A stretch of 51,038 nt of DNA from a virus (Duplodnaviria > Heunggongvirae > Uroviricota > Caudoviricetes): the IMG/VR virus record IMGVR_UViG_2872180393_000001; one strand, written 5' to 3'. Positions within the stretch are counted from its first letter, which is position 1, and every line of letters starts with the position of its first letter. Of the stretch, positions 9,001 through 12,000 are shown in pieces. The position numbers were made by a program.

Positions 9001-12000
9001 TGTATATTCACCGCCCTGGTGAGTAGTGCGTCCTGCTGATGGCTTAAAGATAACCTAGGTTATAGCGGTGGTCAATAACTTAATTTATGGATTCTGATAA
9101 ATAAGTTATAAGTGATGGATAATAAAGGTATTTTATTTTTGTAAATGTTGCGGATTGGTCGGTATTGGAAGGGGGGCGCTGTATTGCTGGCGTGTTGGTT
9201 CGTGGTTTACCGCATTTGCGGCTGTTAAATATGGGGGACGATCGCGAGGCAAAGAAAACCCGGCGCGGAAGCCGGGTTTGAGATTTAGTTATTTTCAGCA
9301 GCTCGGATAAGAGCGGAAGTGCTGACGAACATGTTCGAGCTCACCGAAACGTATGCGGCAGTAACTGCGCACATAAACCGGCTTGTCGTGTTCGTAGATG
9401 AAGTCATCGCGATTAACATCGTGAGCCATAGCTTTTCTCCTGTTTTTGTATACAGCCTGTTTACCCGAACAGGTTGTAGTTTGTTGGGAGAACCGCTATC
9501 CTTGGCTTGCGGTTGCCAAGGGTGTAGCGGTAGGTAATCCTCCATACACTTCGGAAATACTGGATATATTTCCGACCCAAAAAGCCCCGTTCCCTCGGGG
9601 CTTTATTCTTTTGTTCCGCCATCAATCATCGCAAAAGATTCCACAATCAGACTGATACGCTTGGCTTCATCTTTTGTCAGGTCGCGAGGCAGGTTGCCAA
9701 TGGTGACGATAAGATCTCCGCGCAATGGAATCGGCAGTTCAAATGTTTTTACACCAACCTGTACGTCAGTTACCGCCTTCTTCTTAGGTGCCATCTTTTT
9801 ACGCTCCTTTTTTTTATTTACATCACCAACTGACACATTAATCTCACCATTCTGGTAGGAGATAAATTTATCAATAGCACTTTGCATTCGGCTTTTGTAT
9901 GCCTGCAAAGATGATTCAGAGGGTTTGCTTTCTGCTGAGTCTGCGTACGAACTTGCTAAGTTGGCAACGCTATAATCACGGATATCGGCATCGGTGAAAT
10001 CCGACCCAAGAACAGTAAGAAGGCGCAGGGAAGAGTCACGGAGATTGCGGGCTGTAGCATCATTGACGATACCAAGCTCAGGAAGCATCTGTAAGAAGTC
10101 CTGAAATGCTTTGATGGTGTAGCTTTTGGTTTGCATAAAAAAGCCTCATACAGTTGATGAGGCAATACTAATTTGATCGTCAAAACAAATCAAGACCCAA
10201 GAAACGATCGTTGATTCCTTTCTTTGTGACAATACAGTCAAATCAAGTTTTACAAGGATTACTTTTCTTCGATTACATTAAAGGCCGCACTTCTGCGACC
10301 ATCCATCACCAAAATGTCTCTTCACTCATCCGAAGAAGCAGCAATCCGGGTCAGCACGCACAAGCTCAAGCGCATCAGTCAGCGAAAGTTCAGTACTGTA
10401 CTGATGCCATTTCATATCCTTCCGCATCCAATAGATTTTCCATCTATCCAGAGAACGTATGTACTTGATTCTTGCTGATGGCAGGATGTTTGTTTCACCT
10501 GGGTTGCCCTGCCACACGGGGCGCTGTTCGCCGATATCTATCGTTTGGTCATTGATGCTATAAACAATATCCAGTTCATTGCGGATATGTTCAGGCGGCC
10601 TTATGCTTTCAATGAATTGGTGAACTTCTTTTTTGACCGCTTGATATTCAAGGTCAGTGAACGCCATCTATCCTCCTCACCCAAACGTTTCTTCAGGCCA
10701 CTGGTTACCAGCTATGCGATGACCAGAATACTCTGCCAATAATCCTTACGGTTTTATGAAATTCATCTCTATCCATTACTTCATCCGGGTACTCTTCGCG
10801 ATTTATTGATCTGATTATCACCGATGTAGGAGTGGCGATTAATGTTTTTACTCGCAACAAATCAGACTGGCAAATAGCGTAGGTTTTACCATCTCTGATG
10901 GTGGTATCTTGTGTGTTAACACCAACAACATCGCCATCGTGAAGAGTTGGTTCCATGCTTTGACCTGTTACCCTTACCAGCTTGGCAGAACTTTCAGTTA
11001 CCCCCATCTTTTTCAGATAGTACTTTCTGAAAACCAAAGAGAACTCTGATGATTCTTCTATCTCGCAGCTACCGCTTCCAGCCGAAAGCGAAACGTTAAG
11101 AAGAGGCAATGCGACAAACTCGTCATCGTTTTTTTTAATGTCTTCCCATACCACAGCTTTTAAAGATGACTCACGGATATTGGATGGTTCTTCATGTGTA
11201 CCATCCCTCATTTCACCAATACCAGAACTAAGCCATTCAGGGCGTACTTTTAAAGCATTAGCTAACTCAACCATCTTGCGAGATCCGTTTGTTTTACCGG
11301 ATGACATCTTCTGTATGGCTGGCTGAGATATTCCAACCATGTCCGCAAGCTGTGATTGCGACACCCCTGCCGATCTCATGGCTGCATTTAGTCTTTCTGC
11401 GAATGTTTTCATATCCACAAATCTATAACTACGGTTATCCAAAGTAAAATAATAAAGGTTATTGCTATCTTTTATAACTTGGGTTATCCTTGGTTATAAG
11501 TAATGGCTGAAAGAGGTATGCTCATGAATTTAGTAATTCAACGAGCCTTGAAGATTGTCGGTAGTCAAAAGCGGCTTGCCGACAAGTGTGGTGTAACGCA
11601 GCCAGCAGTACACAAATGGCTGAAAGGCGGGCAGGTTTCTCCAGAGAAAGTTACCGCCATCGTTAACGCCACTGGAGGGCAGATCAAGGCTTACGAAATT
11701 CGCCCAGATTTACCACACCTGTTTCCAAAACCGAATCAGGCAGCATAAGTAACACCGCTATTTTCACAATGGGCATTCGTCCTACGTCGCTGACAAAGCG
11801 AGCCCCAAGATATCTGACCAACTAAGGCCATATGCGTTTCCACGCATAGCTTTCAACTAACTATTCACTATTGGAAATCTTAAGAAATGGAACAAACAAG
11901 TTACAGCAAACTATCACAGCGCGACGTTGATCGTGCAGAAACAGATTTACTCATCAACCTGTCAACGCTTACCCAGCGCGGTCTGGCAAAGATGATTGGC

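Follow-up and report, generated by a model that had tools for sequence, protein, structure and literature searches.

ATAAC-N4-GTTAT inverted repeats as probable operators of a non-lambda immunity switch in a lambdoid prophage

The inverted repeats ATAAC-N4-GTTAT found at OL and OR are, with a probability that we put at about 0.87, the operators of the immunity switch of this lambdoid prophage, here analysed as one window of 51,038 nucleotides (IMG/VR record IMGVR_UViG_2872180393_000001). They are almost certainly the binding sites of the prophage's own CI and Cro at the two early promoters, and the switch appears, by analogy, to be an ordinary lambda-style switch with a different DNA specificity. 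This reading draws on the presence of the sites, which are more numerous than expected by chance, on where they lie with respect to genes and promoter-like hexamers, on how well they are conserved, and on the particular recognition helices that accompany them.

Results

Operator sites and flanking genes

Five 14-bp sites carry the motif (Table 1). The first-pass annotation had placed three sites about 24 bp apart between cI and cro, and these were recovered at the same coordinates, two of them perfect and one with a single mismatch (centre-to-centre distances of 24 and 25 bp). It had also counted two to three sites to the right of N, of which the perfect palindrome at 9050 and the site at 9075, with one mismatch and 25 bp away, were confirmed, whereas the third proved to be only partial. 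ATAAC/GTTAT half-sites are indeed common to OL and OR, three sites being perfect and two having one mismatch. OR2 is positioned just upstream of the predicted PRM -35.

A window-wide motif search, which had been proposed as a check, returned eight matches to ATAAC-N4-GTTAT with at most one mismatch, compared to 0.91 ± 0.85 expected by chance from dinucleotide-preserving shuffles, and none of 100 shuffles reached eight. Five of these matches fall in two stretches of ~60 bp, OL and OR, and the remaining three (33425, 43047 and 47739) are all located within long tail-gene ORFs. Since the match at 43047 is also found in the lambda J gene, it was regarded as a chance match. Reading of the 110-bp cI-cro gap revealed no second repeated palindrome besides the 14-mers, and an operator longer than 14 bp was ruled out because the flanking bases vary among the five sites. 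A fourth apparent site in this region (11484-11497, TTATCCTTGGTTAT, two mismatches) was rejected, the GGTTAT repeat being missing from HK639 and Salmonella phage S.Kent.

Table 1. Control sites, predicted promoters and genes of the immunity region (coordinates of the window).
Feature	Coordinates	Strand	Sequence	Remarks
N antiterminator	8415..8798	-		First gene of the PL operon; Pfam N_peptide
Predicted PL	9047..9075	-	TTGACC-17-bp spacer-TATCTT	Directed toward N; reported by promoter scan
OL1	9050..9063		ATAACCTAGGTTAT	0 mismatch, perfect 14-bp palindrome; between PL -35 and -10, overlaps -10
OL2	9075..9088		ATAACTTAATTTAT	One mismatch (G10 to T); abuts and overlaps PL -35 hexamer
Degenerate OL3-like site	9096..9109		GATAAATAAGTTAT	Right half-site GTTAT kept; four mismatches in left half; putative role
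Lone half-site with non-consensus partner	9119..9132		ATAAT (ATAAC in relatives)	Half-site (G)ATAAY at 9119-9123
cI repressor (235 aa)	10705..11412	-		Pfam HTH_3 and Peptidase_S24; helix 3 SQPAIQKM; S24 autocleavage domain
Predicted PRM	11422..11449	-	TTTTAC-16-bp spacer-TATAGA	Putative; read from sequence
OR3	11425..11438		ATAACTACGGTTAT	0 mismatch; overlaps predicted PRM -10 hexamer
OR2	11449..11462		ATAATAAAGGTTAT	One mismatch (C5 to T); last T is first base of predicted PR -35
Predicted PR	11462..11490	+	TTGCTA-17-bp spacer-TATCCT	Read from sequence
OR1	11474..11487		ATAACTTGGGTTAT	0 mismatch; right half-site gives first three bases of predicted PR -10
cro (74 aa)	11524..11748	+		Pfam YdaS_toxin, P22_Cro, HTH_3; helix 3 TQPAVHKW
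cII	11887..12186	+		HTH protein
HTH_36 protein	12349..12723			Pfam; encoded nearby

Beyond OL2, the centre of the OL3-like site lies 21 bp from that of OL2. Its GTTAT is invariant in an alignment of five phages, and HK639-type relatives carry ATCACNNNNGTTAT at this position, with one mismatch. At 9119-9132, GATAA is likewise invariant in the five-way alignment and the site departs from the full motif by two to three mismatches in the relatives; it may represent a weak fourth OL site. A plus-strand promoter-like match spanning 9094-9123 (CTGATA-18-GATAAT) was rejected as a conserved promoter, its -10 being GATAAC in relatives; an operator half-site fits the conserved part of this match better.

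The genes around the sites have the organization of a lambdoid switch. cI, encoding an HTH and S24/LexA-type protein, and cro diverge around a short control region; three palindromic sites, spaced by roughly two turns of the helix, overlap the predicted PR and PRM; a second set of sites is present at PL upstream of N; and CI and Cro probably have a common DNA specificity, judged by their similar recognition helices. The start of these helices is near-identical in the two proteins (SQPAIQK in CI and TQPAVHK in Cro, QPA-V/I-x-K). The closest solved structure to the N-terminal domain of CI (residues 5-64) is the 434 repressor DNA-binding domain (E ~1e-7), and the one closest to Cro is a chain that bears the name 'Cro protein' in its deposition (3bd1). 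Scans of the adjacent ORFs with PADLOC and Pfam were of no relevance to the operators.

Predicted promoters

OL1 lies within the predicted PL, whose -35 extends over the first base of OL2. The hexamers of PR show eight of twelve matches, below the scan threshold of nine, which explains why PR was missing from the promoter-scan output; the PRM hexamers are weak matches as well. Only nine bases separate the PRM -10 from the cI ATG, and the cI mRNA would thus be nearly leaderless. Both the -35 region of PRM (AGTAAAA) and its -10 register are conserved in relatives. Moreover, PL, PR and PRM are set in the same register to the operators, as every -10 begins with the TAT of a GTTAT half-site, and for PR and PL this register is conserved in five phages. 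The GenBank record of HK639 annotates a putative pR (L003 3956-3984) ~17 bp to the right of the PR assigned here. This candidate was rejected, as its spacing is not kept in the window, whereas the alternative PR, whose -35 and -10 are fused to OR2 and OR1, respectively, recurs in each of the five phages and has the same arrangement as PL.

Conservation across related loci

The footprint of the sites was determined in 88 related loci from E. coli, Salmonella, Enterobacter and Kluyvera, comprising 22 distinct OR and 35 distinct OL sequences. Information per column was 1.94-1.96 bits in the half-sites, compared to 1.2 bits in the central N4 and 0.9-1.07 bits in the DNA between the sites. OR1 and OR3 match the consensus perfectly in all 22 distinct OR sequences, with six and nine different central tetranucleotides, respectively. 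OR2 is the departing site, having one mismatch in 10 of the 22, and the nearest relative, SH2026Stx1, has ATAAC at OR2. At the other end, OL1 follows the consensus in 33 of the 35 distinct OL sequences and the G10-to-T departure of OL2 is itself conserved (33/35). The arrangement of OL1 and OL2 at PL was found in 81 of the 88 loci, several of the rest ending short there, and the distance from OL to cI ranges from 875 to 2593 bp among relatives.

The CI helix SQPAIQKM was present in every locus bearing ATAAC-N4-GTTAT operators, and the Cro helix (T/S)QPAVHKW in all six compared loci with a Cro match; in the Entomohabitans locus L007 the operators are present and no Cro match was obtained. HK639 has kept the CI N-terminal domain together with the operators and has a different C-terminal domain, so the operators track the N-terminal domain of CI despite differences in the C-terminal domain and in the replication genes. 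Repressors at 57-63% identity with the helices SQPAIWRL or SQPSIWKL are accompanied by changed half-sites, e.g., ATACC...GTTAT, and in these distant relatives with different operators the Cro helix has changed as well. Among complete E. coli genomes, 164 of 5426 (about 3%) carry this immunity type, and the carriers include STEC strains of O26, O145 and O157 as well as several Stx1 and Stx2 phages.

Comparison with known immunity types

The first-pass annotation had proposed that the immunity is non-lambda in an otherwise lambda-like phage, and both parts of this proposal agree with the comparison. The alignment of CI with lambda CI covers 67 residues at only 30% identity (E 0.001), Cro gave no BLASTP match to lambda Cro, and ATAAC-N4-GTTAT is absent from the lambda operators. 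In contrast, the int-xis genes are 98% identical to those of lambda, the nin genes 89-97%, the lysis genes 95%, the tail genes 81-91% and the head genes about 66%. A blastn comparison of the window with lambda gave no match between 6327 and 16261 among the matches listed (at least 150 bp). The TATCACCGCCAGTGGTA-type 17-bp operators and the CI/Cro pair that define imm-lambda are thus not those of this phage, whose operators are 14 bp long. Cro moreover belongs to the P22_Cro/YdaS Pfam family, and the third OL site is degenerate, unlike in lambda. The layout, on the other hand, is that of lambda: cI and cro diverge around a ~110-bp gap that contains three sites, and further operators are clustered at PL, upstream of N and about 2.4 kb away. 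Also as in lambda, the sites overlap -10 and -35 of PR and PL and -10 of PRM (all as predicted here), the middle sites are weaker, the cI transcript from PRM probably has almost no leader, and CI contains an S24 autocleavage domain. Operator spacings, which for lambda are our own arithmetic from the annotated operators, are 24/23 (OR) and 24/20 (OL) in lambda and 25/24 and 25/21 in the window, i.e., 1 bp more at each interval.

Operators of phage 434 are also 14 bp long (ACAA-N6-TTGT, with the half-site ACAA(G/T)), and the likeness extends to the related CI N-terminal domain and to palindromes whose outer bases are conserved and whose centre varies. However, the structure alignment places the 434 helix TQQSIEQL opposite SQPAIQKM, the half-site is ATAAC in the window, and ACAA-N6-TTGT was not seen on reading the cI-cro gap; the operators and the helix TQQSIEQ characteristic of 434 immunity are therefore not those of the window.

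Phage 933W (Tyler et al., 2004; Koudelka laboratory) is similar in that its aligned pieces are 97.6% identical on average and the annotated N lies under a match; two strong OL sites have likewise been reported for EDL933/933W. The cI-cro-operator module is not in common, as 933W matches only 34% of the stretch 8400-11800, in three pieces, which suggests that a different immunity type is joined to a 933W-type N gene; 933W immunity, with its own cI, cro and operators, is thus not present. SH2026Stx1, which has a closely related CI and Cro, matches the window from 9028 to 11766 in one piece (95%), and the start of this match at 9028 points to a mosaic junction just left of OL1. The comparison with known lambdoid immunity types that had been advised earlier hence separates the window from lambda, 434 and 933W and places it with PA28, SH2026Stx1 and HK639, a group having the helices SQPAIQKM and QPAVHKW, three putative OR sites and at least two putative OL sites. 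PA28 has a CI and a Cro at 84 and 86% identity, respectively, to the proteins of the window, the same recognition helices and sites in the same positions, while the central bases, the inter-operator DNA, the N gene and the cargo between OL and cI differ. Taken together, the earlier suggestion that this operator family sets the immunity specificity finds support in the gene context, the promoter overlap, the footprint across 88 loci and the co-occurrence with the helices.

Discussion

By analogy with lambda and 434, we infer repressor binding, cooperativity, activation of PRM, Cro binding and SOS induction for this switch. CI dimers would bind the operators through a 434-like helix-turn-helix, with one monomer per ATAAC half-site and no base-specific reading of the four positions in the centre. 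PR would be blocked in the lysogen by CI bound to OR1 and OR2, and PL by CI bound to OL1 and OL2, each operator pair covering the -10 and -35 hexamers. From OR2, just upstream of the weak -35 of PRM, CI could stimulate synthesis of its own nearly leaderless mRNA, whereas CI at OR3 would cover the -10 of PRM and turn cI off once repressor is abundant. The middle sites OR2 and OL2 are intrinsically imperfect, suggesting that they would be filled cooperatively from the perfect outer sites. During lytic growth Cro is expected to occupy the same sites, since the start of its recognition helix is near-identical to that of CI, and the prophage would be induced when RecA stimulates CI to cleave itself through its S24 domain.

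Could the repeats instead have arisen from the AT-richness of promoter DNA, or be palindromes due to chance, with no protein that binds them specifically? The regions are AT-rich and the GTTAT half-sites overlap -10-like TAT, so some of the conservation could stem from the promoters themselves. However, the observed count was not reached in any shuffle, conservation extends to both half-sites of each site, even to those outside the promoter hexamers, the central N4 varies freely across the 88 loci, and the half-sites change when the recognition helices of CI and Cro change, making this explanation extremely improbable. Binding by a regulator other than CI (e.g., Cro only, or a further HTH protein of the phage or the host), which would leave CI to act elsewhere or via another sequence, could be imagined from the other HTH proteins encoded nearby, cII and the HTH_36 protein. 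We consider it very unlikely, as CI and Cro have the start of the recognition helix in common, the operators stay with the CI N-terminal domain even when it is combined with another C-terminal domain (HK639) and other replication genes, and the cI-cro gap holds no other repeated palindrome.

It is also rather unlikely, with a probability that is nevertheless appreciable, that the sites are CI and Cro operators of a switch that departs from the lambda logic, by non-cooperative binding, lack of PRM activation from OR2, only two functional OL sites or absence of OL-OR looping. Departures of this kind have been reported for some Stx phages, and the 933W repressor is said to bind adjacent sites non-cooperatively. 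The similarity to 933W at N, the degenerate third OL site and the variable distance between OL and cI among relatives would all be compatible with such a departure. Only two OL sites have been reported for EDL933 (933W) (Yin et al., 2015, discussion), and the BAA2326 repressor uses weakly symmetric sites, an indication that the switches of Stx phages need not conform to that of lambda (PMC5977221); the BAA2326 operators are unrelated to the present motif. On the other hand, the conserved weakness of OR2 and OL2 beside perfect sites would indirectly favour lambda-like cooperative occupancy, as would the lambda-like spacing and promoter register.

If the repeats are the operators of a lambda-style switch, the CI N-terminal domain, Cro and the operators would jointly specify an immunity type distinct from those of lambda and 933W and apparently common to SH2026Stx1, PA28, HK639 and about 3% of complete E. 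coli genomes. We tentatively propose, at somewhat less than even odds, that they mark one large unnamed cross-immunity group comprising Stx phages (SH2026Stx1, PA28 and the O157 Stx1a phages) and non-toxigenic prophages (the present one and HK639). If true, Stx phages entering a cell could be repressed or excluded by a harmless prophage already resident there, and the graded relatives would constitute a natural 'recognition code' series, in which the change from Q to W at residue 6 of the CI helix goes with the change from A to C at position 4 of the half-site. Database records of these loci name both genes no more specifically than 'XRE family' or 'transcriptional regulator', and control sites are here assigned for an immunity type of this frequency. 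Knowing the operators should make it possible to predict homoimmune prophages, to design reporter or repression assays for Stx-phage induction and to study the evolution of specificity in the 434-like repressor family.

No new mechanism is revealed by these sites, and the motif itself is already on the list of putative operators of the Stx2a phage PA28 (PST3). As far as our searches reach, no binding, footprint or reporter experiment on this CI repressor was found, searches for the exact 14-mers returned unrelated papers only, and none of the titles and abstracts listed for HK639 concerned its operators. The PA28 operators were predicted by inspection only and are tabulated as ATAACCACGGTTAT, ACAACAATTGTTAT, ATAACTCATGTTAT, ATAACCTAAGTTAT and ATAACTATATTTAT (Yin et al., 2015, BMC Genomics 16:733, PMC4587872, Table S5). 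The labels of that table appear to be swapped, with the cI-cro sites apparently given as OL and the N-side sites as OR (PMC4587872).

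Operator Sites and Promoters

The ATAAC-N4-GTTAT sites in the cI-cro gap and beside N can with high confidence be regarded as operators for CI and Cro, in an immunity type that is related to 434, is neither lambda nor 933W, and would function in the manner of the lambda switch; the first-pass annotation had read them as operators that set the immunity specificity, and genetic context, footprint and co-occurrence with the recognition helices all support this. A pattern search of the window allowing up to one mismatch, combined with direct reading of 8700-12000, confirmed every operator coordinate previously proposed. 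Eight matches were obtained compared to 0.91 ± 0.85 in dinucleotide-preserving shuffles (0 of 100 shuffles reached eight), five of them clustered in two segments, each about 60 bp long, and OL1 is a perfect 14-bp palindrome. The three extra matches all lie within long tail-gene ORFs and one is also found in the lambda J gene, thus we consider them background. Where two to three sites had been suggested beside N, two were verified, while the third (9096-9109) is only a half-site, retaining GTTAT but lacking the left arm.

Features of the immunity region and its surroundings
Feature	Coordinates	Strand	Basis or remark
OL1	9050-9063		no mismatch
OL2	9075-9088		one mismatch, G10 to T
OR3	11425-11438		no mismatch
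OR2	11449-11462		one mismatch, C5 to T
OR1	11474-11487		no mismatch
Predicted PL, TTGACC-17-TATCTT	9075-9047	-	promoter scan; points at N
Predicted PR, TTGCTA-17-TATCCT	11462-11467 and 11485-11490	+	read from cI-cro gap
Predicted PRM, TTTTAC-16-TATAGA	11449-11422	opposite to PR	read from sequence
IS3-family transposase orfB	6730-7548	+	domains rve integrase core, HTH_21
Nmad5 (nucleotide modification associated domain 5) protein	7730-8413	-	Pfam E 5e-71; just downstream of N
N antiterminator	8415-8798	-	ORF, domain match
ORFs between OL and cI	10326-10667, 9603-10136, 9295-9429	-	three ORFs
CI-type repressor, HTH_3 and Peptidase_S24	10705-11412	-	ORF, domain matches
Cro, P22_Cro/YdaS type	11524-11748	+	ORF, domain matches
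cII	11887-12186	+	ORF, domain match
Replication protein, 968 aa, Toprim_2 and AAA_25, primase-helicase type	13354-16260	+	domain matches

The sites are positioned exactly as expected of lambdoid operators, with centre-to-centre spacings of 25/24 bp (OR) and 25/21 bp (OL) compared to 24/23 and 24/20 for lambda, as worked out from its operator annotation. The PL hexamers flank OL1, which reaches into the -10, and the -35 is overlapped by OL2. This register recurs at PR, where the last T of OR2 begins the predicted -35 and the TAT of OR1's GTTAT begins the -10. In the predicted PRM, the TAT of OR3 begins the -10 and nine bases separate it from the cI ATG, hence the cI mRNA would be nearly leaderless, as in lambda.

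Conservation of the Operators

The closest phage record, SH2026Stx1 (NC_049919.1), is 95% identical across 9028-11766, and related modules are present in PA28, HK639 and a Salmonella phage contig. Alignments of four relatives revealed identical half-sites and different central tetranucleotides, with three sites at matching offsets in the cI-cro gap and two or three at PL in all four. The SH2026Stx1 match begins just left of OL1, and this junction is a typical mosaic joint. One hundred further loci encoding relatives of the CI N-terminal domain were collected from species-representative genomes and viral contigs, and footprints were counted over 88 loci with the CI recognition helix SQPAIQKM. 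OR1 and OR3 were perfect in 22/22 distinct sequences, the central four bases taking 6-9 forms, and OL1 matched the consensus in 33/35; information content was 1.94-1.96 bits per column in half-sites, 1.2 in the N4 and 0.9-1.07 between sites, which is a clear phylogenetic footprint. OR2 carried one mismatch in 10/22 distinct sequences and OL2 the G10-to-T departure of the window in 33/35, so that the middle sites are kept imperfect, as would be expected if they were filled cooperatively. The left half of OR2 reads ATAAT in this lineage, as it does in loci on viral contigs whose CI N-terminal domain is 100% identical. In SH2026Stx1, and in most members of the 97% group, the consensus C is present; ATAAT may reduce OR2 affinity.

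CI and Cro Recognition Helices

The CI helix 3 SQPAIQKM is invariant wherever ATAAC-N4-GTTAT operators occur, and the Cro helix 3 reads (T/S)QPAVHKW in each of the six compared loci that gave a Cro match (none was found in Entomohabitans), the two sharing Q-P-A-(I/V)-x-K. In HK639 the C-terminal half of CI is unrelated (overall CI identity 45%), yet its N-terminal domain, Cro and the operators are all retained; specificity thus goes with the DNA-binding domain. Repressors of 57-63% identity from Xenorhabdus, Rahnella, Serratia and Mixta carry SQPAIWRL or SQPSIWKL, altered Cro helices and altered half-sites in their cI-cro gaps, e.g., ATACC-N4-GTTAT. Across six distant loci from Xenorhabdus, Rahnella, Mixta, Serratia and Erwiniaceae (L008, L010, L011, L012, L014 and L015), the CI helix was SQP(A/S)IW(K/R)(L/I), with SVPSIWKL in Mixta L012, and half-sites were ATACC/GGTAT-type or mixed. 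A helix-to-base covariation is possible, in which a Q-to-W substitution at helix residue 6 would accompany an A-to-C change at half-site position 4.

Of the solved structures, the DNA-binding domain of the 434 repressor lies closest to the CI N-terminal domain (E about 1e-7), and 3bd1, a chain deposited as "Cro protein," lies closest to Cro. The 434 repressor, too, recognizes a 14-bp palindrome, whose central bases it does not contact.

Immunity Type and Previous Descriptions

The proposal of a non-lambda immunity in a lambda-like phage holds, since CI, Cro and operators differ whereas int-xis, nin, lysis and tail genes match lambda. Identity to lambda is 98% for int-xis (1-1294, matching lambda 27812-29105), 89-97% in the nin region, 95% for lysis genes, 81-91% for tail genes and about 66% for head genes. 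In contrast, CI is 30% identical to lambda CI over 67 residues only, BLASTP gave no match between window Cro and lambda Cro, and lambda operators lack the motif. The window starts at the exact 3' end of the lambda-type int gene. A 933W immunity was rejected, as no more than 34% of 8400-11800 is matched by 933W; the match consists of three pieces with a mean identity of 97.6%, and N is one of the features annotated beneath it.

We infer, rather than show, that the repressor binds these sites, acts cooperatively, activates PRM and responds to SOS induction; Stx-phage repressors are known to depart from the lambda pattern in particulars of this kind (PMC5977221). Literature searches turned up neither binding nor genetic experiments with this repressor. 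The finding is an ordinary one, the consensus being already listed as putative for PA28: Table S5 of Yin et al., 2015 (PMC4587872) gives ATAACCACGGTTAT, ACAACAATTGTTAT, ATAACTCATGTTAT, ATAACCTAAGTTAT and ATAACTATATTTAT as "putative operator sequences" of this PST3 phage. These equal the sites found here in PA28, so the motif had been noticed before, by inspection. In that table OL1-3 are the cI-cro sites and OR2 and OR3 the N-adjoining ones (PA28, KP682381.1, 3927-3989 and 5178-5216), and the OL/OR labels appear swapped.

The CI N-terminal domain and OR module occur in 164 of 5426 complete E. coli genomes, whose records label the two genes only "XRE family" or "transcriptional regulator." In SH2026Stx1, the RefSeq "CI-like repressor" CDS spans 570 nt (4678-5247, vs. 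4681-5385); tblastn recovered a full-length 235-aa CI, with 46 N-terminal residues including the helix-turn-helix upstream of the annotated start.

Neighboring Genes

The three ORFs between OL and cI occupy the position that rexAB has in lambda. The one at 10326-10667 encodes a DUF3024 protein that matches PDC-S43, a candidate defence family of PADLOC (E 7e-42), and the cargo at this position varies among relatives, with 875 to 2593 bp from OL1 to the cI ATG. The primase-helicase type protein replaces the lambda O/P-type replication genes and carries an intein-like insert (Hom_end_hint and LAGLIDADG_3, about residues 379-634). In the early-left region, the IS3-family orfB is inserted between the Nmad5 gene and kil/cIII-like DNA (6122-6327), the latter being 96% identical to lambda.
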